The notes below the pieces were generated by a model. It made no database searches. It was not told where the DNA came from and saw only the letters and a program-made list of their open reading frames with translations. DNA of 64,000 nucleotides from an uncultured Gammaproteobacteria bacterium (GTDB taxonomy: Bacteria; Patescibacteriota; Microgenomatia; Levybacterales; GWA1-39-11): positions 46,877 to 110,876 of the forward strand of contig CAYOTA010000004.1 in assembly GCA_964406795.1 (NCBI GenBank), read 5' to 3'. Each line of letters starts with the position of its first letter. The stretch's first letter is position 1. This document shows, piece by piece, positions 4,707 to 44,888 of this stretch. The position numbers and the translations under genes are program-made.

Positions 4707-6352
4707 GGCAAGACCTCCACCGCGCTGAGGAACACATTCTGGGTGGCCCCGTGCGGCGCGAGACTCAGCAGGATCTCGCCCGCCGCGTCCGGGCGCAGCG
4801 TCAACTCCCGCACGCACGCCCGGAACGTGCCCGGAGCCACCGCAAACACGTCCAGCGAGGCGATGGTCGCCACCGTCGCGCCCGTGGCTGATACCGCCAT
4901 CACGCACACCCCGGCGGCGCCGCCCGTCCCCAAGTCCGCCCAGTGCAGCCGGAGGGTGTATTCGTGCTCCGGTGCGAGACCCGTGAGCACCAGAGTGAAG
5001 ACCCCGCCATCCGTGCGCGCCCGCGCTGTTTGGTAGATCGCCTCCGGCGCCGCCTCCGCCACGCCGCTGCGGTCGATGGCCTCCGCGGTGATGAGGTTGC
5101 TGCCCGCCGCCAGGAGTTGGTGCGCCAGGTAGGGATACAGCGCCGGCCCACCCAGATTGATCCGCCACCCCGGGTGCGGGCTCATGCGGTAGTGCAGGGC
5201 CACATCCAGCGCCGTGTGCCGCAGTCCTGAGGTGGCGCTGTGGGAAACCACCCGCCACGCCAACCTCGCGCCCGGAGGAACCACCAACTCCGACAGGGTA
5301 ACCGACGCCTCCACAGATACGCCCATAGCTCCCGCCGGCAAAGTCAGGGTAATCCCCGTGGCGACACCCGCCCAGAGCAACTCGAGCACCGTCGGCTCCG
5401 GCGCGCCCATCGCCAAGGCCTGCGCGCGGACGACCGTGGCCTGAATGGCGGCACCCCACTGGCGCCAGCCGGGCAGCAGCCCCTCGGCCTCCGGTTGCAC
5501 CCCGGCACTCCAACCCACCACGAATTCGGTGGCCGGCACCGATCCCAAGCCCAACGCGGAGAGCTGTCGCAGCAGGCTGTAATCCGCCGCAGCCAGAAAG
5601 CCGGGTGCCTCCTCGGTGGCCAGCGAATGCGAGTGGTTGCCCCTGGCCGCCTGCTCGGCCCCAGTGCCCGCCGGCACCGAGAGCCCGTCCTCACCGGCAG
5701 CAATCGGGATGCCCGAGGCCGGCGCCGCATCCAGCCTGACGCTGGCCCGCACCACCCCCGCTTCGATGTTGACCGCAGCGGTGGGCGTGTCCCCGCCCTC
5801 CAAGACTTCCGCGGCGGGTCCATGCTCATGATCCCCGCGCGCCGCTTGCCCGTGGGCGTCGCCGAAGTCGAGCGCCAGCCCAGCCTCGCCCACCACCAGT
5901 CCACCGCCGGGAGCCAGCCGCACGGCGCCGGTCAATTGCTGCCCGCTGAGCTGCAGCTCCACCGTGGTCGTAGCGGCCACGCTCAGTGGATCGTGCAACT
6001 GGTCATGGGAATGATCGCCAGGGGCGGCTTGTTGCGCACCGGCGCCCAACTGCACCGCCAAACCCGCCTCGGTCACCGCGAGCGGCCCCTCCGGCGCGAC
6101 CCGCACCACCAGCGTGCGCGTGCCGTCTCCGGCCACGAATTCCACTCCACCACCAGCCACGAGCCACGCCTCCGTGGCCGCCCGTACCGCCGCCGCCAAC
6201 CCCGTCACCTCGCCCGCAGCGTGGGCGTGCGCGGGCAACCCCAGGGACTCCAACAGGGTCAGCAGGTCCATCCGGCGCACGGGTTCCGTGCCGTCGGATG
6301 GGGCCTGCCCCACGAAAACCCGCCCCACCGTCAAGGCAACCAATTCATTCAT
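4703..6352 (-). CDS. HxH tail-fibre-repeat protein (549 aa)
   Basis: Three repeats G-x-x-Q-A-A-x-G-(D/N)-H-(S/E)-H (GDHSHDQLHD, GDHEHGP, GNHSHS) typical of phage tail-fibre HxH repeats; ATGA overlaps at both ends. Confidence 0.5.
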   Translation of the reverse strand: MNELVALTVGRVFVGQAPSDGTEPVRRMDLLTLLESLGLPAHAHAAGEVTGLAAAVRAATEAWLVAGGGVEFVAGDGTRTLVVRVAPEGPLAVTEAGLAVQLGAGAQQAAPGDHSHDQLHDPLSVAATTTVELQLSGQQLTGAVRLAPGGGLVVGEAGLALDFGDAHGQAARGDHEHGPAAEVLEGGDTPTAAVNIEAGVVRASVRLDAAPASGIPIAAGEDGLSVPAGTGAEQAARGNHSHSLATEEAPGFLAAADYSLLRQLSALGLGSVPATEFVVGWSAGVQPEAEGLLPGWRQWGAAIQATVVRAQALAMGAPEPTVLELLWAGVATGITLTLPAGAMGVSVEASVTLSELVVPPGARLAWRVVSHSATSGLRHTALDVALHYRMSPHPGWRINLGGPALYPYLAHQLLAAGSNLITAEAIDRSGVAEAAPEAIYQTARARTDGGVFTLVLTGLAPEHEYTLRLHWADLGTGGAAGVCVMAVSATGATVATIASLDVFAVAPGTFRACVRELTLRPDAAGEILLSLAPHGATQNVFLSAVEVLP

Positions 6353-7728
6353 TCGCGAGGCCCCCCATCCACCTGCCCCGGCGCGCGCCCGGGCAACTGC
6401 TTGGCGCCCGTTCCACGATTGAAGAGCGGGAGCACCCGCCCCGCGGTTTGCTGCTTTCCGGCCAACTGCGCCTCGGCCTCCTTGCGCTCCTGCTCTTCCT
6501 CCTGATCAAAGCCCTGATCCTCGAGGTAGGTGCGTTGGCTGATCGGGCCGGACTCCAGACCGTGCTTGAGAATATCCAGCGCCAGCCGAGCGTCCTGAAA
6601 GCACTGGGACCCCCACGCTGGCCGCACCGGCACCGGCGCCCCGAGCACCTCCGCGACCCGGCGGATAGCCCGCGCGACTTCCTGGCGCTGCTCCATCGCC
6701 TCGGTCCGGAAGAGGCTCCAGGCATTGAGCGCCGCCTGCGGGTCGTGCAAAATCTGACCGAGCGGCCCCAGAAACTCATACACCCGGCGGCGCAAACCAT
6801 CGTACCGGGTGCTGTCAAAAACCTCCGGGTCCGGGTGCGGGAACTCCAGCGTCCGGTCAAAATTGGTGACCATTTCCACGATCCCAAACCGCCCTTCGGT
6901 CATATTGCGGATCGCGGTCGCGTGTTCCTTTTTGCAGTGGTAGGTGGGCTTGCCAGCGGCGGGCCCGACGCGGATTTCATGCCCCACTTTCCACTGTGCG
7001 AAAACCCGGCGGTAGAGGAAGGCGTTGAGCTGATCCCCCACCTCCAGCGAGGCCTGCGCCTCGAGGGTTCGCAGCAGCCCTCGCAGGCGCGGCATCGCGA
7101 AGCCCAGGCCAGCTCGCTCGCGCTTGAGCACCAAAAACCTCTCGCCCACCCCTTCCCCCACCGTGATCTCTCCTTTCTGGTAGCGGGCGCGCTCCTTTGG
7201 TGGGAGCGCCTCGAGATCCTTGGCGTCCAAATGCACCTTCATCCGCAACTTCTCGACCCCCATGACGTCGCTGTACTCGCAGCGTTCCGGAGGGACCACG
7301 AGAACGCGCTCGACAGTTCCAGCACGAACTTCGCGCCAGAAGAGCACCACATTATCAAGCAGGAGCCAATCCCGCCACAAACAGCGCACCACCTCATGGA
7401 TGCTGTCCAGTGCGTCCGGATTGCCCTCGCACCAATCCTTCCACACCTGCCGGTCGCCGGTGCGCTGAGGCACCAGGCGCAGTCGGTAGTTGAGAAAACA
7501 GCCCTTGAGTTGCAGCAGAGCGCTCAGCGCATGGCTTTCCGACTCGAAGCGCCGAGCCTCCTTCATGATCCTGCCCTTATCCTCGTGCAGATCCTCGCCG
7601 CAGGATTCCCACGCCTTGCGATCCCGGGGCAACACGGGGCGTTCGGACAACTGAAAACCATATCCCCCGCCGCGGTTGGCGGTGGACTGCGCCCTTTTTC
7701 GTGCTGGCGTTCGGGCCATGTGCACCAC
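6349..7728 (-). CDS. hypothetical protein, possible portal (459 aa, acidic C-terminus DQEEEQERKEAEAQ)
   Basis: Large ORF heading the apparent head gene set; function inferred from position only. Confidence 0.3.
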   Translation of the reverse strand: MVHMARTPARKRAQSTANRGGGYGFQLSERPVLPRDRKAWESCGEDLHEDKGRIMKEARRFESESHALSALLQLKGCFLNYRLRLVPQRTGDRQVWKDWCEGNPDALDSIHEVVRCLWRDWLLLDNVVLFWREVRAGTVERVLVVPPERCEYSDVMGVEKLRMKVHLDAKDLEALPPKERARYQKGEITVGEGVGERFLVLKRERAGLGFAMPRLRGLLRTLEAQASLEVGDQLNAFLYRRVFAQWKVGHEIRVGPAAGKPTYHCKKEHATAIRNMTEGRFGIVEMVTNFDRTLEFPHPDPEVFDSTRYDGLRRRVYEFLGPLGQILHDPQAALNAWSLFRTEAMEQRQEVARAIRRVAEVLGAPVPVRPAWGSQCFQDARLALDILKHGLESGPISQRTYLEDQGFDQEEEQERKEAEAQLAGKQQTAGRVLPLFNRGTGAKQLPGRAPGQVDGGPRE

Positions 7729-7753
7729 CCAAATTCACAACTCCACCCCAATG

Positions 7754-8119
7754 TCAACCTCGGGTGCCGGCGTCCGTTATCACGACTTCAGTCGGATAAC
7801 GAGGGTTAGACGATTGAGCCTCACCGAGCATGTAGCGCAGCAGTGTCGGGCCGATTCCTTCGCCGCAAGCGCCATATTCCGCGATCCACACGTCCGTCCA
7901 TTCGTCCATCTTGTAGTCTCCGCCTTTGTAACCTTGGAAGGTTTTGCCGAGAGCGGATTTTGCATCAGCAAGCATCGCCCCGACAGTCACGTTTTCGCGT
8001 GGCTCGAACGCCAGTTGGTCATAGTAGCCGCGATAGCTGTGAGGATGTCTAAAGCCATGCGGCACGATTTTATCAGCCGGAGCTTTTTCGAGTGTTTCTA
8101 TCAGTTCTTTGAGTGTCAT
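7754..8119 (-). CDS. hypothetical protein (121 aa)
   Basis: Clean ORF in a locally lower-GC patch, MTLKELIETLEKAPADKIVPHGFRHPHSYRGYYD. Confidence 0.5.
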   Translation of the reverse strand: MTLKELIETLEKAPADKIVPHGFRHPHSYRGYYDQLAFEPRENVTVGAMLADAKSALGKTFQGYKGGDYKMDEWTDVWIAEYGACGEGIGPTLLRYMLGEAQSSNPRYPTEVVITDAGTRG

Positions 8120-8125
8120 AATCGT

Positions 8126-8436
8126 CTAACCAGTCGCTCCAACCAACGGCGGTTTCGCGTCACTCATGGCTACCCCCTCTCGCCGTGGCTGAGCGGTGGC
8201 GTTAGAACTCATCAGCACGTCCTCGGCCGTCCGCTGGGCCATGGCCGCGATCTGGACCAGCTCGGCCACCATCAGGTCTGTGCTCCGTTCGCTGCGCTTC
8301 TTCTTCACCTCTTCCCAGAACTCATCAACCTCCTCCAACAGCACCGCGTAGCCCTCGTGGACCGATGCCTGTTTTCCGTGCTTGGCGCGGGCGGATTCCA
8401 GCTCCCGCCTTTGGAGCTCGACGAACGTATTCACGG
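8126..8436 (-). CDS. hypothetical coiled-coil protein (GTG start)
   Basis: GTGA overlap with stop of the upstream gene at 8431-8436; the longer track ORF overlaps its neighbour out of frame. Confidence 0.4.
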
Positions 8437-8808
8437 CACCAAATTGATGAGCTTGGATTGCAGTTCGCCGGCCATGACGCTCGCCTTCGTCAGCATTTCG
8501 GACGCGCCGCAGCGTTCGATTTGATAGCACAACTCCAGCGCGGCCTGCCGGGCATCCGCAACGCCGTTGATTAGAGCGTCGAGGCGTTTCTCCACGCACG
8601 TCAGACAGACGTAGCCGCCAAGGTCGTCGCGTCGATACGGTAGCGGCTTCGATTCTCCGCAGCACGCACACAGCTTTCGGCTGACGTGGGCGTCAAGCAG
8701 CCGGCTGAGTGCGTCGCGCTCTTTTGAGATGGCAAGTTCTCTCGGGGTGGTTGCGGTCGCCACTTGCGAGAGTTCGAGGTAGAGGCGGTTGATTGTTTCG
8801 AGTTCCAT
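8431..8808 (-). CDS. Cys-rich putative zinc-binding protein (125 aa)
   Basis: CACCGESKP...CLTC motif pairs. Confidence 0.5.
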   Translation of the reverse strand: MELETINRLYLELSQVATATTPRELAISKERDALSRLLDAHVSRKLCACCGESKPLPYRRDDLGGYVCLTCVEKRLDALINGVADARQAALELCYQIERCGASEMLTKASVMAGELQSKLINLVP

Positions 8809-8826
8809 ACGTTCTAACCCATCAGT

Positions 8827-9248
8827 TCAGCGGTCCCGCCTGCCGCTGGGATTGTTGGTTTCGTCAGCGGGCGGGCCGCTGACTTCGGTGTTCGGTCCGA
8901 ATAGATGGTGGACCATCTTAAGCAGGTCCCCTTCGGCGCTGTTTGGGAACCGCATCGTTCCATCGGTTTGGCCGTAGAAGTGCAACATTCGTCGACGCAG
9001 CTCGTCGGCGATTTCCACCTTGGACCAGCCGGCCCAGCCGCCAGGCCGAACCATCCGCTCCATCGAACAATGGAAGGTGGTGGCGGTTGAGGGATCGGGC
9101 GCTCCGCTGCTCTCGTTGTCCCCGCCTTCACGCGGCGAATACGGCGCGCCACAACCATCGCACCGATCTCTGGAAGGGAGCTGCCGCCCGCAATAGTCGC
9201 AGCGCAATTGGAATTTCTGAGGCGGAGGAGGTGGAGTAAGCATACCCA
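8827..9248 (-). CDS. zinc-ribbon protein (CDYCG...CDGCG) with C-terminal PNTEVSG tail
   Basis: Internal start MGMLTPPPPP; C-terminus carries the same GPNTEVSG motif as the gene array at 17.4-20.5 kb. Confidence 0.45.
8868..8900 (-). repeat. isolated copy of the GGTGTTCGG / PNTEVSG junction motif
   Basis: gacttcggtgttcgg inside the 3' end of gene 8827..9248. Confidence 0.5.
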
Positions 9249-9250
9249 TT

Positions 9251-9782
9251 TTATACCCTTCTCGCTTCCATTGCACCGCTCCCTTCTGTACCGGAGATGG
9301 GAGGATCCGCGGCGCTATTGGCACCCGGAGGCGTTACCCGCTTGGGTCCACCTTTCCACGACATCTCCCACGAAGTGGAGCAATGGGCGACCAAGGTCTG
9401 GACGATCCGGCGAATCTGGTCCGGCGTGCGCGCAGATTTAAGTCCCGACCCTGGAATCAGGTTGATTTCCGGGATTCCGTCCAGACACGTGTTGAACCCC
9501 ACGAGCCAGGACCTTTGGTTCTCCAATCTTCTGGAGAGCATCTGAAAGACCGTTTCCGCGACGCTTTTCGGATAATGGCGAACATCGGCTCCACACCACG
9601 GACACCAATTGATGCCCACAGAGTCCACGCCGTCAGGCCGTTTAAGCCGCAACCAAATTCCGTGCGAACCCGCAGGCAGAGCAGTTTCCATTCGCAGGGC
9701 AGCAGAAAGCCTATCGCAACAAAAGCTCGACGGAGATTGCCCCGTGCTATCCCGCGGTGTTGTTGGCACGATAGGATTCATG
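9251..9782 (-). CDS. hypothetical protein
   Basis: Track ORF trimmed to internal Met (MNPIVPTTPRD); C-terminal composition is odd. Confidence 0.3.
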
Positions 9783-9804
9783 GGATAACGCAAACGGTTG
9801 GATT

Positions 9805-10134
9805 TTACTGCGCCCGGGCGGCCACGGCGGCCAGCAAAGTTGGATGCCATTCGTAAGTATCCTTGTCGGGATCAAATACATCATTCGTCATGGCAAGGTG
9901 GAATCCTCCAATCGTCCGCATGAGTCCACCTGGATGCCCTGCGAAGCATTCCGTCACGCGCTCATGGAATTTGCGGAGATGATCCACATTGTCCTTATCG
10001 AAGCAGTCCGCTCGGTCACCTTCATCCCAGGTACCATCGGGTTTACACGGGATCCCATCCTCCGCGGTGTTGAGAACGCGCATCAGTTTAAGGAGAGCAT
10101 CCACTTCCTGAGGTGTTGCCTTTGTCAGTTTCAC
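9805..10134 (-). CDS. hypothetical protein (109 aa)
   Basis: ATGA overlap with HNH gene stop at 10131-10134. Confidence 0.5.
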   Translation of the reverse strand: MKLTKATPQEVDALLKLMRVLNTAEDGIPCKPDGTWDEGDRADCFDKDNVDHLRKFHERVTECFAGHPGGLMRTIGGFHLAMTNDVFDPDKDTYEWHPTLLAAVAARAQ

Positions 10135-10486
10135 TTATCTTCTCCATTTCGATGTAACCAATCGGCATTCATCGACATGCTGTTGCCACGAGCCCGATTG
10201 CACTCCAAGCAGGCGAGGGCGAGGTTCTTGATGTTGTGTGTCCCACCCCTGCTGATGGGGCGCAGGTGCTCGATTGTGGCCGACTTCAGACCATTCTTGC
10301 CATCGAAGCAGAGTTGGCACTTGCACCAGATACACAACGAACCGTCCCGGGCACGGAGACGCCGGACCTTCTTGGCGCGACGGCGGGAGTCCCACCAGCG
10401 GAGCATTAATTTCTTATGCTCCCGAAGAGACCCAAGCAAATGGTCGGCAGGGGGCGAGATCGGCGCTGTGGATTCATTGCTCATCT
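10131..10486 (-). CDS. HNH endonuclease (~118 aa)
   Basis: CIWCKCQLC...HLRPISRGGTHNIKNLALACLECN: zinc-finger HNH motif. Confidence 0.7.
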
Positions 10487-11866
10487 TTATGCCGGTGAGG
10501 CCAAGATGCCCACGGTCGCGCGCTCTCCACTTTCCTCGACTACGGCTGAGCCCCGTTGGTTCTGCCAGCTTTGCCAGCAAGTCGAATCCTGCGATATCGC
10601 GCCAGCCACCAAGGCTCCCGAAAGCCCGCAGGGCACGGCATTGCCGATCTGTCGAACCACCTCGGTTTTGGTTCCGGTGAATCGATAACCGCGCGGGAAA
10701 CCCTGCGCGGCGGCGAGTTCGTGGGGCTGAAGCATCCGGAAGCGGATGTCGAGGAAGCATCGCTCGCCGCCGGAATCCACCTCGGGCATCGCCAGTCCGA
10801 AGCGGGACTTGGCGGTCACGGTACCGAGCGGTTCGGTGATTCTCCGGGCCCCGCCGGTGCCATAGTATTCAATCAGAAATGGCTCAACCAAGCCGTGGTG
10901 AATACCGCCCGCGGAGATAGTGGAGAGCGGTTCGGAAAGAGGGCGCGCGGAACCGCGCACCTGGGATGGCGAGGTGCCGCGCATTTGAATGATGAACGGT
11001 TCGGCCAGACCTATGGCACCACACCGAGCGGTCGTAATGGTGGGCAGCGGGGAATCCACCGAGACCACCCGCCCGCCGTGTTCCATGCAAACCAGGTGAG
11101 GCGCTCCACCGAACCGCCGCAATCCATCCAGAATGCGCTCCAGCGTGCGGGGCGCGAGGGGCTTCTTGCGCGCATAAATGCTGTCCGCCTGGATCGACCA
11201 ATCGATGATCTCGCGGGCCGCGCGCCACGGATGAAGCGGGCCAAATAGATCGGCGTCCGCATTCTTCCGGTGCGTCGGTTCCGGCCAGACGATTTTGCGC
11301 CGGCCAAGGACCGCTTGCACAAAGAGACGCTCGCGGCTCGTCGGATCGCCGTAGTCCGCGGCACAAAGCACCCGCCAGTCCACGCGGTAGCCGAGGGATT
11401 CGAGCATCCCGATCCACGCCCGGAAGGTGGCCCCCTTCCTGCTCCTCAAAGGGCGACCATCGACACCTAGAGGCCCCCACTCGGCAAATTCCTTCACGTT
11501 CTCCACGAGGATCACCGAAGGGCGCAACGTCTCTGCCCATCGGGTCACGCAATGCCCAGACGCGCGCGATTGGTCGGACATCGGTTTTCCGCCGCGGGCC
11601 CGAGAATGGTGGGTGCATTCCGGAGAGGCCCACAGCAGGTCCAACGTCCCGCTCGGGAAGAGATGCCTCGGGTTGATGCTGTCCACCGCGGCGCAGACAT
11701 GCCGGGAGGCCGGGTGGTTGGCCTCATGCGTCGCCACCGCCACCGGCCAGTGATTGACCGCGGTCAGTTCCGCTCGAAACCCCAGGCGGCGCAGGGCAAC
11801 CAAGGCCCCCGTGCTGGTCCCGCCCGCTCCGCAGAACAAATCGGCGATCTGGAACACTCGTGACAT
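10487..11866 (-). CDS. dcm: DNA (cytosine-5)-methyltransferase
   Basis: Motif I DLFCGAGG, PC motif ASPECTHHS, ENV, and QIGNAVP motif X. Confidence 0.85.
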   Translation of the reverse strand: MSRVFQIADLFCGAGGTSTGALVALRRLGFRAELTAVNHWPVAVATHEANHPASRHVCAAVDSINPRHLFPSGTLDLLWASPECTHHSRARGGKPMSDQSRASGHCVTRWAETLRPSVILVENVKEFAEWGPLGVDGRPLRSRKGATFRAWIGMLESLGYRVDWRVLCAADYGDPTSRERLFVQAVLGRRKIVWPEPTHRKNADADLFGPLHPWRAAREIIDWSIQADSIYARKKPLAPRTLERILDGLRRFGGAPHLVCMEHGGRVVSVDSPLPTITTARCGAIGLAEPFIIQMRGTSPSQVRGSARPLSEPLSTISAGGIHHGLVEPFLIEYYGTGGARRITEPLGTVTAKSRFGLAMPEVDSGGERCFLDIRFRMLQPHELAAAQGFPRGYRFTGTKTEVVRQIGNAVPCGLSGALVAGAISQDSTCWQSWQNQRGSAVVEESGERATVGILASPA

Positions 11867-11872
11867 GAGCGT

Positions 11873-13348
11873 TCAGGCGCGCGAAGGCGTGGGCACGACC
11901 CCGGATTGCATCGTGTCCGAGGAGAGATTCCCCATGAAGCGACAAGTCGCGCCATAGAGAAGATTGGCGCGGGCATCCTCGGGGAGACGACTCATCTGCA
12001 CGAGACCGCGAAATGTCGGCACGTCGGACGACACGGCGTAGAACGGCTTGGTGCCACCGGGCGGAACCCCGAAATGGCAATCCGTCACCACCCACCCGCC
12101 CATCACCGGGAAACCCGCCACCGGATCTCCGGAGTCATACCGCAGCCGAGCCCCGTCGATCCCGTCCCGCACGTGTCGCGGCGGCAGTGTCGCCGCCACT
12201 CCGATAAACGGGGTGCCGTTTGCGTCGATGTCGGCGAACTCAAAATGGCAACCTGAGGCGCGCACATTCCGCTTGGGCTGACTGATCGCCTGCAGCACGT
12301 GATTGATGGCCGCGTAGCTGATCAATCCACGCGATGACTCCAACTCCACGTCCTCAGTGATGTCCCAATCGTTGTAGAGGAAGGATCGGGCCCCAGCACC
12401 CACGATACTCCGGAACTTCGTTCGCCGGTTGGCCGCCAGACAGAACTGGTTGTCCGCCCCCAAATCCAAAACCCCGTCCTCTACCACGGACCACGCGCTT
12501 TGCTCGTCGGTGAAGCCGATGAAGCATCCACCCACGTAGCTGCCCGGCACCGCGCTGACCCACCAGTTCCTCCCGTGGGCGCCGCCCAAGCCGCGCTGAC
12601 AATTGATTCCGAAGACCTCCTTGCCCGCGTCCTCCGGCTTGGTCCGATCCGGCCAACGCCCTCTCACGGGGCCCACATGGAGATCCGACCACGCCGGTGC
12701 CGTACCGTAGAGCACCACGCCCCCCACAAGCACGGATGACGGGCAATCGTGGGTAAGCGTGAGCCCGTGCAGCTCGGGCGCCTTCCGGGCCGGATCACCC
12801 TGCCAGTGCCCGCCCCAGAGAATGTAGGTGTCGCGTTCATCCCGGGGCCGCCCGTCCGATTCCAGGACGGGATCGCGAACCACCAGCTCCGTCTGTCGCC
12901 GCCCGTACCTCCCATGAAGGTGCTGATCGTACCCGATCAGACACCAGCCGTTGTCCGGGTGCGCCCACGGCCCGCGGCTGAAATACCTGCCCGCCCCAAG
13001 GTCGAGTCGAAACGCGCGGGTGCGGTGCCGCCGCGCAAACGCATCCATGTCCCGGATACGGAAGGGATCTGCCAGGGTGCCACGCCCCCGGCCATCCTCC
13101 TGCTCGGAGCGCGCCTGCTCCGCGTGCCACAACCACTCGGTAGCGCCCACTTCGATACCGACAGGAGGCAAAGGATCCTCCTCGCCGGGACCTTCTTTCT
13201 CCGCCGGCACCGGCTCCGGTGGTGCCTCCACCACCACGGTGAAATTCATGGTCACCTTCCCGCCCGCCGGAATCGCCGAGGCCAGACTCACCGGAGCAGT
13301 CGTAGGATTATCGGGAGATCCATTTGCGGCAGGGGCGGGGTTGCTCAT
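11873..13348 (-). CDS. hypothetical protein (491 aa), possible beta-helix/tailspike-like
   Basis: ORF immediately downstream of a promoter-like element with almost no leader. Confidence 0.45.
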   Translation of the reverse strand: MSNPAPAANGSPDNPTTAPVSLASAIPAGGKVTMNFTVVVEAPPEPVPAEKEGPGEEDPLPPVGIEVGATEWLWHAEQARSEQEDGRGRGTLADPFRIRDMDAFARRHRTRAFRLDLGAGRYFSRGPWAHPDNGWCLIGYDQHLHGRYGRRQTELVVRDPVLESDGRPRDERDTYILWGGHWQGDPARKAPELHGLTLTHDCPSSVLVGGVVLYGTAPAWSDLHVGPVRGRWPDRTKPEDAGKEVFGINCQRGLGGAHGRNWWVSAVPGSYVGGCFIGFTDEQSAWSVVEDGVLDLGADNQFCLAANRRTKFRSIVGAGARSFLYNDWDITEDVELESSRGLISYAAINHVLQAISQPKRNVRASGCHFEFADIDANGTPFIGVAATLPPRHVRDGIDGARLRYDSGDPVAGFPVMGGWVVTDCHFGVPPGGTKPFYAVSSDVPTFRGLVQMSRLPEDARANLLYGATCRFMGNLSSDTMQSGVVPTPSRA

Positions 13349-13354
13349 GGGTTA

Positions 13355-13386
13355 CAGTGTAGCCACAGGCGGCCACACTGTGTCAA
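13355..13386 (-). promoter_or_regulatory. sigma70-like promoter (TTGACA-19nt-TACACT) overlapped by inverted repeat CAGTGTGGCC-N6-GGCTACACTG; -10 lies 7 nt from ATG
   Basis: Read directly on the minus strand in the 66-nt gap between 13349 and 13414. Confidence 0.45.
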
Positions 13387-13414
13387 GCGCGCCGCAAGCG
13401 GCAGGATGCGATTT

Positions 13415-14245
13415 CTACCAGCAACCCGCGTCGTCTTCGGGTTTCACATGGAATCCGCCTTCGGATTGCTCCTGCCACCAAATGCGGAAGGCCACATAGG
13501 CGTTGCGGCGGGAATCCACCAAATCGTCCCGTTCGGAGCTGAGGAAGCGCAACGCACCGTTTTTGGTCGTGTCCCACGCACCGTCCGCGCGGGTGGCCAC
13601 GGAGAACGCACCCATTTGCTGGAGCGCCTGCGAGCCCATGCGGCTCGCCCACTCCTTTTCCTCCGGCCAACCTTGCGCCAGAGGAGAACCATCGCTCGCG
13701 GTCATCTTCACCACCTCCTCGTGGCGGGCCGGGACCCCGATGGTCTCCTTGGTCCATGCCTCGCGAAACAGGGTGTGCATGTGGGTCTTGAGCACATCAT
13801 CACCCTGGGCGTGGGCCAGTTCGGTCGCCCACAGCGCCTGCATGCCACTGTCCCGCCGCAGCACGAAGGAGAGGATGGCGGCGGCGTCCAACTCCGCGTG
13901 GTCACGCGGCACAATCGGGCGGCAGTTGGTCTCCACCCCGCGAACCTTCTGCGCCCGATCTCCAAGTTTTTTCCACAACCACTGACCGCCGCCACCCCAA
14001 TCCAGCACGATGCAGGAGAAACCAAAGTCCATGTGTTTTTCGTGGATCAGCCCGCTCCACTGATCCAAGTCGTACCCACGCACCACGCGGTCGTAGACGA
14101 AGTCGGTCTGCCAATCGGACAACCCGGCAGGATCCTCCACGGAGGCCATGGCCCGGAGCACACTCAAGGCGCCATCGTCGCTGGATTTCTGCTGCGCCGG
14201 AGCGGGATCGATGCCCAGGAAAAAAAAGACGGGCTTGGCATTCAC
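13415..14245 (-). CDS. terminase large subunit-like nuclease (RNase H/RuvC-like) domain protein
   Basis: N-terminal FFFLGIDPAPAQQKSSDDGALSV plus LDWGGGG acidic motifs; GTG start in GTGA overlap with upstream ATPase ORF. Confidence 0.45.
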   Translation of the reverse strand: MNAKPVFFFLGIDPAPAQQKSSDDGALSVLRAMASVEDPAGLSDWQTDFVYDRVVRGYDLDQWSGLIHEKHMDFGFSCIVLDWGGGGQWLWKKLGDRAQKVRGVETNCRPIVPRDHAELDAAAILSFVLRRDSGMQALWATELAHAQGDDVLKTHMHTLFREAWTKETIGVPARHEEVVKMTASDGSPLAQGWPEEKEWASRMGSQALQQMGAFSVATRADGAWDTTKNGALRFLSSERDDLVDSRRNAYVAFRIWWQEQSEGGFHVKPEDDAGCW

Positions 14246-15273
14246 GCCACAGCCCCCCTTTGGCGCTCATCCTCCGCCCGGGAGACGGCCACCCGCACAT
14301 CCCTCTGCCGACCCAGTTCAAGCGCCGCATCAATGCTCTCGGTAGAGAACCATCCGAGCGCGGACGAACCCCACACGCCACAGCCCTCTCCCAGAAACGC
14401 CTCCGGGCTCAGCGAGTCGCGGAGTTCGCGGATCCCGCGGTCATTGCGGAAGAGGTCGCGAAAGGTCTTACCCTTCGTCGCGCTCGGCAACTGGGAGTAG
14501 TCCTTGTAGCAGAAGCCGAAGGTCCACACGTCCGGGCTGCCGCGCCGCTCCCGCTTCAACAGCGCCCGGTGGGTGCGAAGCGAGGGGTGCTGAGCACCTT
14601 CTGCAGTGGCCGTGCGGATCACCTTGTTGCCCCATATCGGGTGGTCCTGATTGCGGGATTCGCGGGTGCAACGTCCGATCAGTTGCTTGGCCACGTTGGC
14701 ATTGGCCTGTTCGGCCTTGGTCCACTCGTCCATCAGCAGCGTGTTGCACCGCAATGAAGCCAGCGTCCGGCTCTCCTGCGCCACCGAGGGCGCCGGCATG
14801 TTCACCAGGCTGCCGTTGCGATAGTACATCTTCCACGAGGACGGGTCCCGCAGCCCCGGGCGGGACTTCTCGTCCCCTTCCTCGGAGAAACGGCCCAACT
14901 GGGACCGGAAGAGCGGCGTGCCCAAGCTCGCGTAGTAGGACCAATACTGGTCCTTGCCGATCTGGAAGGTGGGGAAGATCACCAGCACCCGGTGATCCGG
15001 GATCAACATGGCCCGGAGTTGGGTGATGGCCCAATTCACGAAGGTCTTGCCCGTGGAAAACCCAGAGTGATCCTCCACGCTGCGGGTAAACCAGATCATG
15101 CGTGCCCGGGCGGCCTGGAAGGCATCCAACCGAACGCGGAAGAAGACGTGAATGGCCATCACCGGATCACACAACAGGTCTTCGACCATGTCGTCGGAGA
15201 TCCGGTTCCGGGCCGGGACGCTTGGGCTATGGATTTCCATCGTTCTCGGGAGTTGCAAGGTCCGGATACTCAT
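14242..15273 (-). CDS. terminase large subunit-like P-loop ATPase domain protein
   Basis: Walker A HSGFSTGKT and Walker B LLMDEWTKAE. Confidence 0.4.
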   Translation of the reverse strand: MSIRTLQLPRTMEIHSPSVPARNRISDDMVEDLLCDPVMAIHVFFRVRLDAFQAARARMIWFTRSVEDHSGFSTGKTFVNWAITQLRAMLIPDHRVLVIFPTFQIGKDQYWSYYASLGTPLFRSQLGRFSEEGDEKSRPGLRDPSSWKMYYRNGSLVNMPAPSVAQESRTLASLRCNTLLMDEWTKAEQANANVAKQLIGRCTRESRNQDHPIWGNKVIRTATAEGAQHPSLRTHRALLKRERRGSPDVWTFGFCYKDYSQLPSATKGKTFRDLFRNDRGIRELRDSLSPEAFLGEGCGVWGSSALGWFSTESIDAALELGRQRDVRVAVSRAEDERQRGAVA

Positions 15274-16480
15274 CCTCCTCCCGGGTCAGGTCGGGGACCG
15301 GTTCACCCGCATCCTGCACCGCTTCACGCACGGCGGCTTTGAATCCGGCATCCAGCTTCCCGAGCACGCCGGGCTTGAGTTGAGGCTGCCACGCCGCGTC
15401 CCACAGACCCTCCCGGGCCGCATTCACGTAGGCCACCCAACCCACGCGATACCTTGGCTCAGGGTTCTGCGTGCTGGTGCGCAGCATCACCTGCACTTCG
15501 GCCATGGTGAAAATCCCATCGACCAAGCGGGTGCTGCCGTCCCGCCGATACTCGGCGATGGCGTCCACGATCTCGGTGACGGCTCCCCGGAAGTCCATGG
15601 CCTGACCCGTGATGTTGAACCACGGGGCGCGCTCGGCGATCCGATCCACCACCTGATCGTACTCCCGAGTGCAGGCAGATAGGTCCTCCGAGTATTGCCT
15701 CCCGCGCTTCCGCTCGTTCACATCGAGAGCCGCCGGATCCACCTCGGCCACCGCCTCCTGAAGACGGTGCATGCGCACCTCCAGCAACAACGCGGCCCGG
15801 GCATGACCGGATACGATCTTGTCCTTGAGCAGCGGCTCCCATTCCCGCACTCGCGTCGCCAAGGACGCGGAGAGCCTGCCATCATCGTTCCACAAGGCCT
15901 GAGGAAACGAGTAGCGGGCGAGGATGTCGGCATCGCTCTCGGTCAAAGGAGGCGGGACGGGGCGTTCCGGCGGTCGTTCTGCGGGCAGAATCGGCAGCGG
16001 CACCCCGGCGGGTGGAGCGGTGGCCGCTTTCCAGGCGCGGCGCAGAATCTCCAGTTCGTCTCGGAGCTGCGCCGCGGTGACGCCCATCTCCTCCTGAACC
16101 AGACGCCTCGAGGTGGGGCGGCACCGGTCCGGGTCTGCCCCCACCGGAAGGATCACCGGGAACACGCCGTAGATCCGCGCCACCATGGCCCAACCTCGCT
16201 GGTGCGTGACCAGCACTCCATGCCAATCCGGCAGCATTTCCGCGCTTAAGCCATCAAACTCAGCGGATAACCCAGCGAAGTCCTCCACCCTCCAATCCTC
16301 ACCGCCGTAGTGGTACTCCGCAGCCTCGCCCACCACAGGCACCGCCCCGCGGCGGCGACGGCGCGTCTTCGGGGCGGGCAGCGCAGGCGGCTCCGGGGTG
16401 ATTGGCCCCGAGCAATCCACCGGCGGAACGGGCGGCAGCGCAGGGAAGAGCGGTAGCCCTGGCGGGCGGGGGCCACTCAT
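15227..16480 (-). CDS. hypothetical protein (417 aa, Pro-rich N-terminus)
   Basis: Start MSGPRPPG in ATGA overlap with upstream stop. Confidence 0.45.
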   Translation of the reverse strand: MSGPRPPGLPLFPALPPVPPVDCSGPITPEPPALPAPKTRRRRRGAVPVVGEAAEYHYGGEDWRVEDFAGLSAEFDGLSAEMLPDWHGVLVTHQRGWAMVARIYGVFPVILPVGADPDRCRPTSRRLVQEEMGVTAAQLRDELEILRRAWKAATAPPAGVPLPILPAERPPERPVPPPLTESDADILARYSFPQALWNDDGRLSASLATRVREWEPLLKDKIVSGHARAALLLEVRMHRLQEAVAEVDPAALDVNERKRGRQYSEDLSACTREYDQVVDRIAERAPWFNITGQAMDFRGAVTEIVDAIAEYRRDGSTRLVDGIFTMAEVQVMLRTSTQNPEPRYRVGWVAYVNAAREGLWDAAWQPQLKPGVLGKLDAGFKAAVREAVQDAGEPVPDLTREEDEYPDLATPENDGNP

Positions 16481-17157
16481 GGAACGCCGTTCCTTTCGGC
16501 CGCCGCGACCAGCTCGGGCCACTTCTCCAAAGCCGCTTCGGCGGAGGCCGGCAGTTCGCTGGCCCCGCTTTGGCGCAGAAACGAGAGCCACACGAGCACG
16601 CTTCGCACGCCCGCCTCAGCCGAGGAGACGGCCACCCGAGCCGCCGTGGCGAGCAAACCGGGAGGCAGGGTGTGCCCCGCGCGCACGACCCCACCCAGAA
16701 CCCGATCCAGATTGATGACCAAGGCTCGCGCATCACGCAAGGCGCTCGGCGGAATAGCGCGACCGGCTTCGTCTAGGATCCGGTCTACCGGAATCAGCGG
16801 GAGCTCCTTCATCGCTATATCCTGCGCGACGCGCATCTGGCGGTTGACGCCTGCTGTCATGCCGCCCTTGCCCTGCGGGTGCATGGAGCGAGCGTCCAGG
16901 TGCGGATTAAGCTCCGCGAAGAGCTGGCAGAAGAAGCCACCATCCACCGCCTTCAGCAGCGGCACGGCTCCGGAAGCTGCCGCCAAGACGTCCTTGCTAT
17001 GCAGCCCGAACTGGCACTCCAAATGTTCGGACGGGATGAAGCCGGCCCGGCGGGTGGATTGCGCCAAGGAGGCCAATTCCAACCACAGAATCAGCACCGC
17101 CCGGTGCGCGTCCTTCTCCACGGGCCGATTCCAAGCCCGCACCTCCACTCGGTGCAT
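16477..17157 (-). CDS. hypothetical protein
   Basis: Track ORF 16477..17265 trimmed to MHRVEVRAW to avoid overlap with the 80-aa gene. Confidence 0.4.
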   Translation of the reverse strand: MHRVEVRAWNRPVEKDAHRAVLILWLELASLAQSTRRAGFIPSEHLECQFGLHSKDVLAAASGAVPLLKAVDGGFFCQLFAELNPHLDARSMHPQGKGGMTAGVNRQMRVAQDIAMKELPLIPVDRILDEAGRAIPPSALRDARALVINLDRVLGGVVRAGHTLPPGLLATAARVAVSSAEAGVRSVLVWLSFLRQSGASELPASAEAALEKWPELVAAAERNGVP

Positions 17158-17188
17158 AATGTCCTTCGGCAGCACTACTTCGGATTCG

Positions 17189-17431
17189 TTATTCACGGCT
17201 TGCAGCACTCCTTTCGTGGTTGATTTCGAGCCACCGACGCAGCGTGGTAATTGCCTCCCTGACATCCTGCTCGAGATTCTTGTGTTTACGCCCGCGGCGC
17301 AGGAGCTTCTTCACCGCTTGGAAAAGGACCGGATCGAGCCCGTACTCGATGGCTATTCGGTAGGGGTCCAACAGCACCCCAGCGACGCGGATCTTGTAGG
17401 GGTCTCTATTGCGCACAATGTTCATTATCAC
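17189..17431 (-). CDS. hypothetical protein (80 aa), low-GC patch
   Basis: Clean ORF MIMNIVRNRDPYKI. Confidence 0.45.
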   Translation of the reverse strand: MIMNIVRNRDPYKIRVAGVLLDPYRIAIEYGLDPVLFQAVKKLLRRGRKHKNLEQDVREAITTLRRWLEINHERSAASRE

Positions 17432-17443
17432 GACTATTGTCGT

Positions 17444-18094
17444 CTAATCAGTGTTCGGAGGTGGTACAGGGCGCCAGGCGGTCACGAGCTCGCTGCTCCC
17501 TTCCCACGAAACGAATCCGGCACCGCGGTAGTATCGCGCTTCGTAGATACCTCCAGCGGTTCGCACTTGGACGACTTGCCCGTCAAGTGGTCGGCGAGCA
17601 TCGATGCCAAACCATCCATACAAATCAGCGGTCTCTGTGTTCGGGGATTGAAAGCCGACTGGTCCCGGTGGACCTGCTGGAGCATCGATTATTCCAGTCT
17701 CGCCGGTCGGCGCGGCGCTTGGTTTGTTGTATTGGCCACGACTTTCCATACCTTCCCGGGCCGCGCAGGAGATGGCCTGCTCTGGCTGGTATCCGGTACC
17801 CGTGGCCGTTGGAACGTCTGTGTTCGTTGGTGGTAGGACAGGCCGGCTCCATTCAACACCAGCGCTGGCGCTGACATCGTACTTCGGCCCCCATCCGCCC
17901 GATCCGTCGATGTACTCCCAACGGAGATCTCTCCTGTGTGGGTCAACCCACAGCGGCCTAAAAACCCTCACCAGCCGCCAGTGTCCTCTCGCTATAGACG
18001 TGCCGCGGAACCAGTAGTATCCCGGCTCTGTTGGGAGCCCCGAACCCACCACGTGAGCGGGCAGCGGGTCAGTTGTGGTCGTTGGGGTGCTCAT
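17444..18094 (-). CDS. array member E (216 aa): leader MSTPTTTTDPLPAHVVGSG, internal SPNTE and terminal PPNTD
   Basis: ATGA overlap with member D; shares a ~175-bp direct repeat with member C. Confidence 0.55.
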   Translation of the reverse strand: MSTPTTTTDPLPAHVVGSGLPTEPGYYWFRGTSIARGHWRLVRVFRPLWVDPHRRDLRWEYIDGSGGWGPKYDVSASAGVEWSRPVLPPTNTDVPTATGTGYQPEQAISCAAREGMESRGQYNKPSAAPTGETGIIDAPAGPPGPVGFQSPNTETADLYGWFGIDARRPLDGQVVQVRTAGGIYEARYYRGAGFVSWEGSSELVTAWRPVPPPNTD

Positions 18095-18890
18095 GATTCG
18101 CTGCCGCTCCGTTCGGTGTTCGGACTTTCGTCCGTCAGCAGCCGTTTCACCGCAAGCCCGATAACAAGAGCGAGACTGTCCCCGGTCTCACCATAACGCC
18201 GCCCCGCCTTGCTGGTGATCTCGACGCACGCCGATCCAGCCGACCCGCTCCCAATTCCCCACCGTTCCACGATCTGTCGCAGTCTCTCGAGCAGCCCGAT
18301 TGCGCAGTGGAGGTGCGATGAATATCCGGGGACAACTCGGGAGATTCTCCAGGAGACAAGCGGCCTGAAATCCGCGGCGGTCGCCGTGCTTGGCAGGCCG
18401 AATTGCTTGCAAATATCCGGCTTCCAGTTTTTCCACATCTCGGGCCATAGCGATTCCGCGGATCGATCGTTGAGTGATCTGATCAAACTCTCCCTGTCGG
18501 CGCGGTTCCGCGGGGTGTCGTATGGCGTCCCAAAACCTTCGAGTGGCACACCGTCAAGGCAGAGAGAGATAAAGTCGCTCGGCGCTTCACCAAGCAGGGC
18601 GCTCAATTCGAAATCGAGCGGCGATCCGGTGAGTATAACGTCCGAACCAGCCGCCTGAGCGGCCGTCGATTTCGGGTCGGGTGTAGTCATGGATTCGTTC
18701 CTCCGCCGCTCGGCTTGGTGTTCGGAGATTGAATGCCAACTGGTCCTGGTGGACCTGCTGGAGCTTCGATACTTCCAGTCTCGCCGGCCGGCGCGGCGCT
18801 TGGTTTGTTGTTTTGGCCACGGCTTTCCATACCTTCCAGGGCCGCGCAGGAAATGGCCTGCTCTGGCTGGCATCCGATACCCGTGGCCGT
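17635..18890 (-). repeat. ~175-bp direct repeat, copies ~17635-17810 and ~18716-18890
   Basis: Both copies encode TATG.G.QPEQAISCAA.EGMESRGQ.NKPSAAP.GETG.I.APAGPPGPVG.QSPNT at residues 96-153 of members E and C. Confidence 0.7.
18091..18690 (-). CDS. array member D (199 aa): leader MTTPDPKSTAAQAAGSD, tail SPNTERSGSES
   Basis: ATGA overlaps at both ends. Confidence 0.55.
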   Translation of the reverse strand: MTTPDPKSTAAQAAGSDVILTGSPLDFELSALLGEAPSDFISLCLDGVPLEGFGTPYDTPRNRADRESLIRSLNDRSAESLWPEMWKNWKPDICKQFGLPSTATAADFRPLVSWRISRVVPGYSSHLHCAIGLLERLRQIVERWGIGSGSAGSACVEITSKAGRRYGETGDSLALVIGLAVKRLLTDESPNTERSGSES

Positions 18891-19175
18891 TGGTAAGCGC
18901 TTCAGGATCTTCGCTCGGATCTGGCGCAGAAATCGCGCCGAATTCTCCAGCTTCTGGACCCGGACCTCGATTTCCGGATAGGCCCCATCCCAGACCCAGC
19001 CCCTGCCGCCATTGGCCGCGAACCCTTCGCACCAGGTGCGAGCCTCCGCGTCGAGTCGATCCGCGGCACGGCGGAGGTCGTCAAGGTCGCCGGAGCACAG
19101 TAGGGAACGAGGCTCCGAACCAGCCTCCGAACCCGCCGGCTCAACGACGTTCGGTTGTGTGGGGGTCGCGCTCAT
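18687..19175 (-). CDS. array member C (162 aa): leader MSATPTQPNVVEPAGSE, tail SPNTKPSGGGTNP
   Basis: ATGA overlaps at both ends. Confidence 0.55.
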   Translation of the reverse strand: MSATPTQPNVVEPAGSEAGSEPRSLLCSGDLDDLRRAADRLDAEARTWCEGFAANGGRGWVWDGAYPEIEVRVQKLENSARFLRQIRAKILKRLPTATGIGCQPEQAISCAALEGMESRGQNNKPSAAPAGETGSIEAPAGPPGPVGIQSPNTKPSGGGTNP

Positions 19176-19648
19176 GGCTTTTGGTCTCCGTCGTTGGCCT
19201 TGGTGTTCGGAGAATTAACCGGCCTCATGGTTACAGTCGTCCCCATTTCCAGGGCCGCCCGCGCATGCTCAAGGACGTATTCTAGATCCCCGGCAGCGCA
19301 GATGTCTGGGGCGATTGCCCCGGGTCTCATGGGGGACTTGATTTCGTATCGGTCCGAGTTCGGTGCCGTTGTTGCTTGATTCGTCGCCACCGGGTCAGCC
19401 TCGAATGCGTAGGTGCCGCGTGGAGTCATCTCGATCCTGAATAGGCGAACGCCGCCACGCCGCATCTTCTCGGCGAGCAAACTGGCATGTCTCGTCCACC
19501 ACTCTCCTGGGTTGCAGACCGGACATCTTGGATAAGATGGCTGTTCGTCCTTTTGCTCGTAACCGCAGATCGAGCATCGGCGCGTCATGGGGAAGTTTTC
19601 CGAACCCGCCGCCTGAGCGGTCGGGGTTGGGTTTTGTGGCGTGCTCAT
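19172..19648 (-). CDS. array member B (158 aa): leader MSTPQNPTPTAQAAGSE, zinc ribbon CSICG...CPVC, tail SPNTKANDGDQKP
   Basis: ATGA overlaps at both ends. Confidence 0.55.
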   Translation of the reverse strand: MSTPQNPTPTAQAAGSENFPMTRRCSICGYEQKDEQPSYPRCPVCNPGEWWTRHASLLAEKMRRGGVRLFRIEMTPRGTYAFEADPVATNQATTAPNSDRYEIKSPMRPGAIAPDICAAGDLEYVLEHARAALEMGTTVTMRPVNSPNTKANDGDQKP

Positions 19649-20050
19649 GCTTCAGGTCCTCCGCCGCTGACTTCGGTGTTCGGCAGATATTGGCGGTACC
19701 AATCCAACGTGTTCGGCGTCCACGGGCGGCGGCCTTTTTCTAAGTCCGAGACGTAGGGAGCGGAGCATCCCATCCGACGGGCCATCTCCCGGATCGACAG
19801 CCCTTGACGCTCTCTCTCCTCGCGCATACTGGCCCCAACGGCTTCATGGTCCCATTCGGATCGCTGGTTCCATGTATCGACTGCGTCCTCGCGGTCGAAA
19901 AATCCGTTCGTTTCGACTGGGCACACAGGGCATCTGGCGCGCCACACATTCGCGCATTCGTACACCTCCGCCAGACCCCCACAAAAAGGGCATGGGTACA
20001 GTTCCGAACCCGCCGCCTGAGCGGTCGGGGGTGTGGTCTGGGGTTCATTC
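19645..20050 (-). CDS. array member A (135 aa): leader MNEPQTTPPTAQAAGSE, zinc ribbon CPFCG...CPVC plus XRE-type HTH, tail LPNTEVSGGGPEA
   Basis: HTH segment GLSIREMARRMGCSAPYVSDLEKGRR. Confidence 0.55.
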
Positions 20051-20284
20051 ATAGTCTTCGCTCCAATCGAGGTCGTCTGCGCTGAAATCCGGATCGTGCC
20101 CCAACCTGTCACAGAGTCCTCCGGCCAGCACGCCAGCGCATGGACAGTCGTGGGGCGGACGGCAGGCGCAGTCCTTCGCGGATTCCTCAACGAATCGCAG
20201 GTACTCCACGGACTCGTACGGGTCCACACTGTCCGAACCCGGCACGTGAGCGGGCAGCGGTTCCGTTGGGGTGTCGGTCTTCAT
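20045..20284 (-). CDS. hypothetical Cys-rich protein (79 aa): leader MKTDTPTEPLPAHVPGSD
   Basis: Leader resembles member E; ATGA overlap. Confidence 0.5.
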   Translation of the reverse strand: MKTDTPTEPLPAHVPGSDSVDPYESVEYLRFVEESAKDCACRPPHDCPCAGVLAGGLCDRLGHDPDFSADDLDWSEDYE

Positions 20285-20556
20285 CTGGTGTCGCTGCCGC
20301 TCCGTTTGGTGTTCGGCGGCTGCGCGTCCGCAAGGGCGGTCAGCTCATTGGATAGAATTCGCACCTGGTCCTCCGTCACGCGCACGGAGTAAACCTCGTC
20401 GCACATCTCTCGGATCTCGATCTTCCCATCAGGCAGCCGACTGATCCGCATGATTCGAGAGCGATCCAGTCCCTCCAGAACCGATGCGAATTCTGTCAGC
20501 CCATCAAACGCCGACGAGTCGATTTCGAGCATCGTCGGCCAGAGTGCATTCGTCAT
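20281..20556 (-). CDS. hypothetical protein (91 aa), tail PPNTKRSGSDTR
   Basis: Carries the conserved C-terminal tail of the array. Confidence 0.5.
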   Translation of the reverse strand: MTNALWPTMLEIDSSAFDGLTEFASVLEGLDRSRIMRISRLPDGKIEIREMCDEVYSVRVTEDQVRILSNELTALADAQPPNTKRSGSDTR

Positions 20557-24459: not shown

Positions 24460-24659
24460 CGCTTACCTCCCAACGAAAAACGGACCATCGAAAGGGAGGC
24501 GGGTGGTGGTAGAACCCCGCAGACGAAGGCTCCCAGCCGAAGCCGGTCACCGCGCCGCCCTTCCAATGGTCCAGTCGTTTTCAACATCTGCTCTTTCCGT
24601 CACCGGCTCGGGTACCACGCCTTGCCGATGCCCCACATTTAGGTCGCCGCAGGTCCGTT

Positions 24660-44886: not shown

Positions 44887-44888
44887 TG

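Follow-up and report, generated by a model that had tools for sequence, protein, structure and literature searches.

What appears to be a second, very divergent large terminase subunit (TerL), here called TerL2, is encoded as two separate proteins, an ATPase (ORF-A) and a nuclease (ORF-B), by overlapping open reading frames (ORFs) in a stretch of DNA from an uncultured Gammaproteobacteria bacterium (assembly GCA_964406795.1, contig CAYOTA010000004.1, positions 46,877 to 110,876; the whole stretch of 64,000 nucleotides (nt) is referred to as the window). The pair probably constitutes a functional two-subunit large terminase that belongs to the head module of a second tailed phage, in addition to an intact, canonical TerL (TerL1) that is also encoded in the window. 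A preliminary description of this DNA, made from the letters alone, had already proposed that a second TerL homologue is present and that its ATPase and its nuclease are encoded by different ORFs, and this is now supported by relatives in which the two halves are fused and by the fold matches of one such relative, P0001.

Under the explanation that we favour, ORF-A and ORF-B would be made as separate polypeptides from one mRNA, either because ribosomes, having terminated at the TGA of ORF-A, start again at the GTG of ORF-B that overlaps it, or because fresh ribosomes bind an AGGGGGG sequence located 7 nt upstream of this GTG. The two proteins would presumably assemble non-covalently on the portal of their own module, and then cut and pump DNA. 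Translational coupling, association of the two chains and packaging activity are thus what we infer for the pair. In its family, the TerL2 gene would have been cut, or re-joined, repeatedly and exactly in the linker between ATPase and nuclease.

Domains, fold and relatives of the TerL2 pair

ORF-A carries a Q-motif (DAFQ), a Walker A motif (SGFSTGKT), a Walker B motif with the catalytic glutamate (LLMDEWT) and a C-motif (TATAE), and ORF-B, the N-terminus of which reads (M)NAKPVFFFLGIDPAPAQ, keeps all the conserved acidic motifs of the nuclease (GIDPAP, LDWGGGG, GDD and RDDLVD). The preliminary description had read the Walker motifs as GFSTGKT and LLMDEWT, and had placed the nuclease in an ORF of its own, joined to the first by a GTGA stop/start overlap and with a run of eight T residues (T8) 15 nt into the second. 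All of this was recovered from the window sequence, as was the intact terL, the product of which matches Terminase_6N (1e-14) and Terminase_6C (4e-14). The real start of ORF-A is probably Met12 (ATG at 15240), giving a protein of 332 amino acids (aa), since homologues begin there and the NCBI form of the protein has 332 aa.

Profile searches with both halves gave neither a match to a terminase family nor a match to a non-terminase family, because there were no hits at all in Pfam (E<=0.1) or PHROGs (E<=0.01). Similarly, phmmer and family-profile searches of PDB sequences with TerL2 returned nothing relevant, no sequence similarity between TerL1 and TerL2 could be detected, also when the TerL2 family profile was aligned to TerL1 with hhalign, and a tblastn search with P0001 gave no match in 50,697 deposited phage genomes. 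In IMG/VR only one related contig was present. An exhaustive HMMER search with ORF-A against 1.84 billion cluster representatives yielded only 156 relatives, and the TerL2 family is a small, very divergent TerL family of Verrucomicrobiota prophages.

When the concatenated sequence of ORF-A and ORF-B was used as the query, 39 relatives were found, most of which (32 of the 39) are single proteins of 567-678 aa that cover 91-99% of the query, with a length of 600-640 aa in most cases. The best fused relatives are P0001 (59% identity) and P0002 (58%); ORF-A is 62% identical to residues 8-325 of P0001, and ORF-B is 58% identical to its residues 340-614. The residues expected to be catalytic are retained in both halves: Q44, K67 and E174 (P0001 numbering), which are the Gln of the Q-motif, the Lys of Walker A and the Glu of Walker B, are invariant in 32 homologues and present in ORF-A, and the nuclease residues D346, D415 and D582 are invariant in the family and present in ORF-B.

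The structural evidence comes from an AlphaFold2 model for which the fused homologue P0001 was used instead of the proteins of the window; this model was based on 32 homologues and had a mean predicted local distance difference test score (pLDDT) of 85.7. In a Foldseek comparison of this model with the PDB, the best 23 matches were all full-length large terminases, aligned over 570-690 columns. They include the PhiV-1 terminase and those of phage T4 (gp17, 2e-14), Sf6 (gp2), HK97, D6E and T7, the last five with 570-630 columns and E values from 2e-14 to 1e-10. Isolated TerL ATPase and nuclease domains ranked next. The ATPase domains of T4 gp17 and P74-26 and the nuclease domain of G20c TerL (E 2e-6) were matched, and the phi28 gp11 motor was among the weaker matches. 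In BFVD, the named matches among the top 50 were almost all large terminases (best E 2e-27), one of them with template modelling (TM) scores of 0.60/0.66 across 598 columns. By predicted fold, motifs and context, the pair is thus best regarded as a large terminase. The likeness lies in the modelled fold and is not demonstrable with sequence profiles, and the pair departs from the usual definition of a TerL on two points, namely recognition by a curated profile and the presence of both domains in one polypeptide.

Recurrence of the split and nature of the junction

Alignment with the fused relatives places the break of the window exactly in the inter-domain linker, where the preliminary description had suggested that it should be sought. 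It falls in a variable segment between ...G-x-x-R-G-L-x-P-x-x-S-R and Y-F-L-G-V-D-P-A-P-A, and no residues were lost. The seven other proteins among the 39 first relatives, of ~345 aa, end at the same linker boundary. Of the ~75 cluster representatives with a complete ATPase domain, ~26, or about one third, are 300-357 aa long, and most of the 25 short representatives that were read stop a few residues past the last ATPase motif.

The comparison with related genomes that the preliminary description had called for, which consisted of inspection of the contigs of short relatives and a tblastn frame analysis of 18 related loci, showed that the split recurs with many types of junction. In the closest relative, L022 (69% and 63% identity for ORF-A and ORF-B), the halves are joined as TGA-CGCG-ATG with a +1 frame change, and L012 (47% and 44%) has the same GCG-TGA / GTG-AAC overlap as the window. 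An ATGA overlap is found in L017 and an 11-nt overlap with a +1 frame change in L005, whereas L006 and L007 have an in-frame TGA followed by a 72-nt spacer. In the contig of P0036 a 46-codon ORF separates the halves, and in L004 they are separated by three unrelated genes, encoding a DUF5662 protein, a pol-beta-like protein and a 192-aa protein. The stand-alone nuclease of L004, which is 33% identical to ORF-B, starts with MQTPAHFFFEGVDPAPS and has the same N-terminal boundary. In the spacer of L006 (7285..7362) and L007 there is no second in-frame stop, and an imperfect inverted repeat, GAAAGCTGACAGCGGAAA ... TTTCCGCTTTTCC, is present; possible functions are those of a terminator, an attenuator or a context for readthrough.

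Some apparent cases of splitting were rejected. The frame change in L016 is due to an N-gap, L018 has multiple shifts elsewhere and is probably a pseudogene or affected by long-read error, and in L009/P0047 the frameshift is inside the nuclease and not at the linker. The latter shift follows VLRARPAP in a GC-rich run (~11060..11090 of VHDE01000002.1) and leaves a 410-aa product; unlike the clean linker splits, it is probably a true pseudogene or an assembly error.

In a rough neighbour-joining tree the split forms are scattered among the fused forms, which implies several fission or fusion events. Since the junctions need shifts of -1, +1 or 0, or are physically apart, there is no common recoding signal, and separate polypeptides are therefore the parsimonious product. 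When the window is compared with L022, the ratio of nonsynonymous to synonymous substitutions (dN/dS) amounts to 0.21 in ORF-A and to 0.26 in ORF-B, with a dS of ~1.3, and such low values between two split genomes indicate that both halves stayed under purifying selection. A two-piece terminase maintained by translational re-initiation was one of the options in the preliminary description; its two-piece part is strengthened by the recurrence of the split and by the purifying selection, and the re-initiation itself we only infer.

At the junction in the window, frame A reads CAA AGG GGG GCT GTG GCG TGA and terminates as ...VSRAEDERQRGAVA*. Upstream of the GTG, the open part of frame B extends over no more than 8 codons (from 14266; APKGGCG-V), none of which is a start codon; the GTG is the sole start codon that keeps the first catalytic Asp and the catalytic first strand. 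Overlaps of 4 nt are, according to the gene calls, the usual gene junction across the TerL2 operon. Purine runs resembling a Shine-Dalgarno sequence precede ORF-B in the window, L005 and L012, and the first residues of ORF-B are (M/V)-N in L012 and L022 as well as in the window. Judged by its sequence, the AGGGGGG of the window may serve as a ribosome-binding site that pairs with the anti-Shine-Dalgarno sequence. A small hairpin predicted at the junction carries the GUGAAU stop/start in its loop.

It is conceivable, but in our view rather unlikely, that a fused TerL of ~619 aa is produced by -1 frameshifting or by RNA-polymerase slippage at the run of six G residues (G6) within AGGGGGG, in which case the division into two ORFs would serve regulation or arise as a by-product. 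This G6 is the only homopolymer in the 27-nt stretch that is open in both frames (14242..14266), and one added G would join the ORFs as ...ERQRGGCGVNAKPVFFFLGID..., with the linker length of the fused P0002 and with ERQRGGCGVNAK as the junction-spanning peptide. On G GGG, a tRNA-Gly that reads GGG might shift to the -1 frame and pair again, and interrupted ter genes for which recoding is proposed occur in Streptomyces phages (PMC10732093). However, the canonical slippery heptamer X XXY YYZ was not found in frame A within the two-frame overlap, so that only a single-tRNA slip on G GGG is conceivable. For a 141-nt RNA that spans the junction, the predicted fold had a z of -0.65 relative to shuffles, which is no significant local structure. 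Moreover, the GTGA junction recurs in L012, where only two codons of frame B are open upstream of the GTG and a slippery run is absent, and a signal at G6 would not be shared by the relatives, which require shifts of -1, +1 or 0 or carry entire genes between their halves. The T8 run was rejected as a slippage or recoding site: slippage there cannot fuse the ORFs because it lies after the stop of ORF-A, and the DNA of L009, L012 and L022 shows no conservation of the run. It has no evident role beyond coding for the conserved FFF strand.

That the junction represents a recent inactivating frameshift, which would make TerL2 a pseudogene in a decaying second prophage, is unlikely. The nearest fused relatives differ from the window by an effective 1-nt frame change in a linker that contains homopolymers, other family members are damaged elsewhere (the nuclease frameshift of L009/P0047 and the multiple shifts of L018), and no integrase or other evidence for activity of the second element was found. 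On the other hand, the nearest relative of all, L022, is also split, with the low dN/dS values given above, all catalytic residues are intact, and a start codon and a Shine-Dalgarno-like sequence are placed exactly at the domain boundary. The remaining ORFs of the module are intact as well, and most of them have homologues in related loci. The decayed terminase of the preliminary description was therefore abandoned, on the grounds that the split recurs, the catalytic residues are intact and both halves are under purifying selection.

The second head module and the rest of the window

The pair is part of a tailed-phage head-packaging module that occupies roughly the first 17.3 kb of the window (1..17.3 kb) on the minus strand (Table 1). 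The suggestion in the preliminary description that the pair belongs to a second phage-like element is in agreement with this, as the element has its own head module with a portal-like gene. The order p239, p417, TerL2, portal-like p459 and then capsid candidates is kept in at least 13 Verrucomicrobiota loci. The second gene block as a whole starts further upstream, at ~30.7 kb, with genes for an AAA_23 ATPase, an HTH_36 protein, an IstB/DnaC-like ATPase and a Lar/helix-turn-helix protein, and ORF-B is followed by genes for a 458-aa protein, a C5 methylase, an HNH protein, p459, p549, p287 and p244, and then by those for a homologue of a weakly cement-like protein, p380 and p278.

Table 1 Positions of the TerL2 pair, its junction and other features in the window (numbering of the forward strand)
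Feature	Position	Strand	Remarks
ORF-A, putative TerL2 ATPase subunit	14242..15273	minus	P-loop ATPase, 343 aa from the ATG at 15273
ORF-B, putative TerL2 nuclease subunit	13415..14245	minus	RNase H-like, 276 aa, GTG start
GTGA overlap (ORF-A TGA and ORF-B GTG)	14242..14245	minus	tcac on the plus strand; ORF-B in the -1 frame relative to ORF-A
AGGGGGG, Shine-Dalgarno-like	14253..14259	minus	7 nt upstream of the GTG; includes the G6 run, 14253..14258
T8 run	14220..14227	minus	A8 on the plus strand; encodes Phe-Phe-Phe of the first nuclease beta-strand
p417	15227..16480	minus	Directly upstream of TerL2; most constant neighbour, in 16 of 18 related loci
p239	16477..17196	minus	Upstream of p417; homologues in 10 loci
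C5 cytosine methylase	10487..11866		Between TerL2 and portal candidate p459
HNH endonuclease	10131..10406		91 aa, PF01844/PF14279; between TerL2 and portal candidate p459
p459, portal candidate	6349..7728	minus	Homologue downstream of TerL2 in 13 loci
Conserved head-module genes	3057..3791, 3843..4706, 4703..6352	minus	Upstream of p380
Homologue of an L004 protein with a weak Phage_cement match	2488..3006	minus	Just upstream of p380
p380, major-capsid candidate	1283..2425	minus	Synteny and BLASTP to L003, L004, L014 and L022
TerL1, canonical single-chain large terminase	52509..53954	minus	Terminase_6N/6C
tRNA-Met (CAT)	52051..52127		Between TerL1 and the Mu-type portal gene
Mu-type portal, module 1	50464..52032	minus	
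Mu-like protease, module 1	49321..50445	minus	
Major head protein, module 1	47886..48815	minus	phrog_1005

The assignment of p459 as the portal protein of the TerL2 module has moderate support. Its AlphaFold2 model, made from 4 sequences, had a pLDDT of 49, and the best 50 Foldseek matches in the PDB were all portals (HFTV1, T4, HK97, T7, lambda, Mu, SaPI1 and gene transfer agent; E 4e-6 to 6e-3). A Pfam search with 15 homologues of p459 gave only noise, and PDB sequence and profile searches nothing relevant. The protein p380 has no direct family match and is a candidate for the major capsid protein because of its position. According to BLAST, the capsid-side genes are common to L003, L004, L014 and L022, and p287 is present in 8 loci. 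For p417 and p239 there was no match to a Pfam, PHROG or PDB family; both are candidates for a small terminase or a DNA-recognition partner. HNH proteins that adjoin terminase genes assist cos cleavage in HK97-like phages.

The neighbouring genes also bear on whether the pair could be something other than a terminase, either an ATPase with a RuvC/RNase H-like resolvase or a TerL exapted for replication, recombination or defence, which we consider very improbable. Points that would fit such a role are that no curated terminase profile matches, that a canonical TerL is already present in the window, that p417 and p239 have no assigned function, and that replication-type genes lie upstream (IstB/DnaC-like, HTH_36, AAA_23). 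Nevertheless, the whole-length fold matches are exclusively TerLs, domain order included, portal-like and capsid-module genes follow downstream in at least 13 loci, and in L004 the pair heads a block with a cement-like gene and a capsid-sized gene downstream. In addition, no other TerL was found in the loci of the relatives within the 10-kb flanks that were read. The unrelated ATPase and resolvase that the preliminary description had kept as an option is rejected, because most relatives are single chains that span both halves, the fused model matches full-length TerLs and the invariant residues are kept.

The DNA of the junction is 100% identical in contigs assembled from sequencing runs SRR13608703 and SRR13608704, and a contig from SRR13608705 (L020) is identical to the window across 3415..20080, with the junction included, so that a one-off assembly error does not explain the presence of the same junction in contigs from three separate runs. 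A homopolymer miscall at G6 or T8 is thus hardly credible as the origin of the split, even though homopolymers flank the junction and the supporting assemblies, with their consecutive SRR numbers, seemingly come from one study, since other studies have yielded independent relatives with the split at this very site and an error in T8 could not create the upstream stop.

Several considerations weigh against a functional two-subunit terminase, or limit what can be concluded about it. The association of the two chains is an assumption. The closest fused relatives, P0001 and P0002, show that a single chain is also viable, and the split could therefore be neutral instead of advantageous. With G6 in the stretch that is open in both frames, some product may be made in fused form, and the second element may be either an active phage or a domesticated or defective prophage. 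Furthermore, no small terminase was identified among the proteins of the TerL2 module, p239 and p417 being without a family, the portal assignment rests on the low-confidence model of p459, and the tree from which fissions and fusions are counted is unbootstrapped and was built before L022 was fetched, which makes their number approximate.

In the first, canonical module, TerL1 is preceded by genes for an SNF2 helicase, a DUF932 protein, a DUF5131 protein and an RNA ligase and by a small ORF, and the head genes are followed by tail genes, one of which encodes a beta-helix protein. When the window was compared with the related loci by BLAST, only the second block was shared and almost nothing from 30.8-64 kb, which indicates that TerL2, with which module 2 is conserved, serves its own module and is not a spare for module 1. 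No paralogues between the two blocks were detected in a comparison within the window, and no integrase or att-like repeat was found there; the head modules may represent tandem prophages or belong to a single composite genome. Apart from DUF5131, the only distant link between the blocks is that the products of 11873..13348 (458/491 aa, downstream of TerL2) and 39880..41355 (491 aa) both resemble one protein of L003 (29% and 23%). Two ORFs of 1187 aa (30827..34390 and 41369..44932) were considered as relatives and rejected, as they have no mutual similarity; the second has NosD/beta-helix and fibritin-like matches, which suggest a tail spike or fibre.

Some further sequence features were noticed. 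The heads of both gene blocks carry nearly identical palindromes (30217..30238 and 58928..58949, GGATGTTCCACGTGGAACATTT) and a shared start-region motif (30443..30472 and 58336..58365), which may be shared operator sites. At 24616..24977 a unit of 12 nt, which is 18 nt long at a few positions, is repeated in tandem ~30 times. The array has the HTH_36 gene (23315..24550) on one side and the gene for the AAA_23 ATPase (25540..27483) on the other, and may represent an origin of the iteron type or else a repeat in a coding sequence. A repeat of ~50-85 nt (TCCGAACCCGCCGCCTGAGCGG...CAT, with GCCGCTGACTTCGGTGTTCGG) occurs at 18040..20316 and 8875..8895, at the 5' end of each of five or six small genes that follow one another on the minus strand. 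After its region of identity to the window, which extends up to 20080, L020 has 26 single-nucleotide polymorphisms in 20081..20307, and beyond ~20314, the site of the last copy of the TCCGAACCCGCCGCCTGAGCGG repeat, it is unrelated to the window and carries other genes. Either mosaic recombination or a break in the assembly could account for this point of divergence.

Comparison with known packaging motors

In domain order and catalytic motifs TerL2 is similar to the canonical large terminases (T4 gp17, HK97 TerL, Sf6 gp2, D6E/P74-26 TerL; Terminase_1/3/6), which have an N-terminal ASCE-type ATPase and a C-terminal RNase H-like nuclease and are encoded before the portal gene. It differs from them by the lack of sequence similarity to curated profiles and PDB entries and by the presence of the two domains in separate genes in about one third of the family. 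A packaging motor that works without a covalently attached active nuclease is known from phages of the phi29 type, of which gp16 has a vestigial, inactive C-terminal domain in the same chain, with a protein-primed genome of unit length that does not need to be cut (PMC7672431). In TerL2, by contrast, an apparently active nuclease is kept as a separate subunit.

Interruption of terminase genes is not without precedent. In the Streptomyces phages phiHau3 and StrepC.1, ter is interrupted by non-coding inserts of 7-10 nt at UUA codons, and bypassing or frameshifting has been proposed to restore one chain (PMC10732093). These phages resemble the TerL2 element in that a terL frame is broken into adjacent pieces while the phage is otherwise intact, but the break in TerL2 is at a domain boundary, the pieces have their own starts, and in some relatives whole genes lie in between. 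The TerL of cyanophage Mic1 contains two inteins, and terL is a frequent target of such interruption (PMC7156551). TerL2 has no intein or intron features, and its products would stay separate instead of being restored to one chain. In the literature we found no description of naturally separate genes for the ATPase and the nuclease of a TerL, although coverage was incomplete and this is absence of evidence only; the matches that were found instead concerned only intein-interrupted and recoding-type interrupted ter genes.

We lean slightly towards the broader view that nature has provided, in the TerL2 family, a series of two-chain motors. Such motors would do without the covalent linker and would have the nuclease as a subunit with a gene of its own, which in some genomes lies apart from the ATPase gene with other genes in between, and fission and fusion would have occurred several times. 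The family also has practical consequences for annotation. The TerL/portal/capsid module of these Verrucomicrobiota elements is invisible to Pfam and PHROGs, and pipelines that are keyed on terL will miss such elements or call them incomplete. Likewise, automatic annotation of terminases with two ORFs as pseudogenes is unwarranted.

Large terminases are single-chain, two-domain motors, and models of packaging disagree on whether a hinge between ATPase and nuclease drives translocation, as well as on which of the domains contacts the portal. With its fused forms and its separate forms, which range from coupled or overlapping genes via spaced genes to halves with other genes in between, the TerL2 family offers matched natural variants with which hinge and portal-docking models can be tested. 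If the TerL2 proteins indeed work as two chains, they would provide a ready-made test of packaging models that depend on a hinge and of the identity of the domain that docks on the portal. A recurrent natural split is unexpected for such a well-studied motor, and may give a handle on an open mechanistic question.

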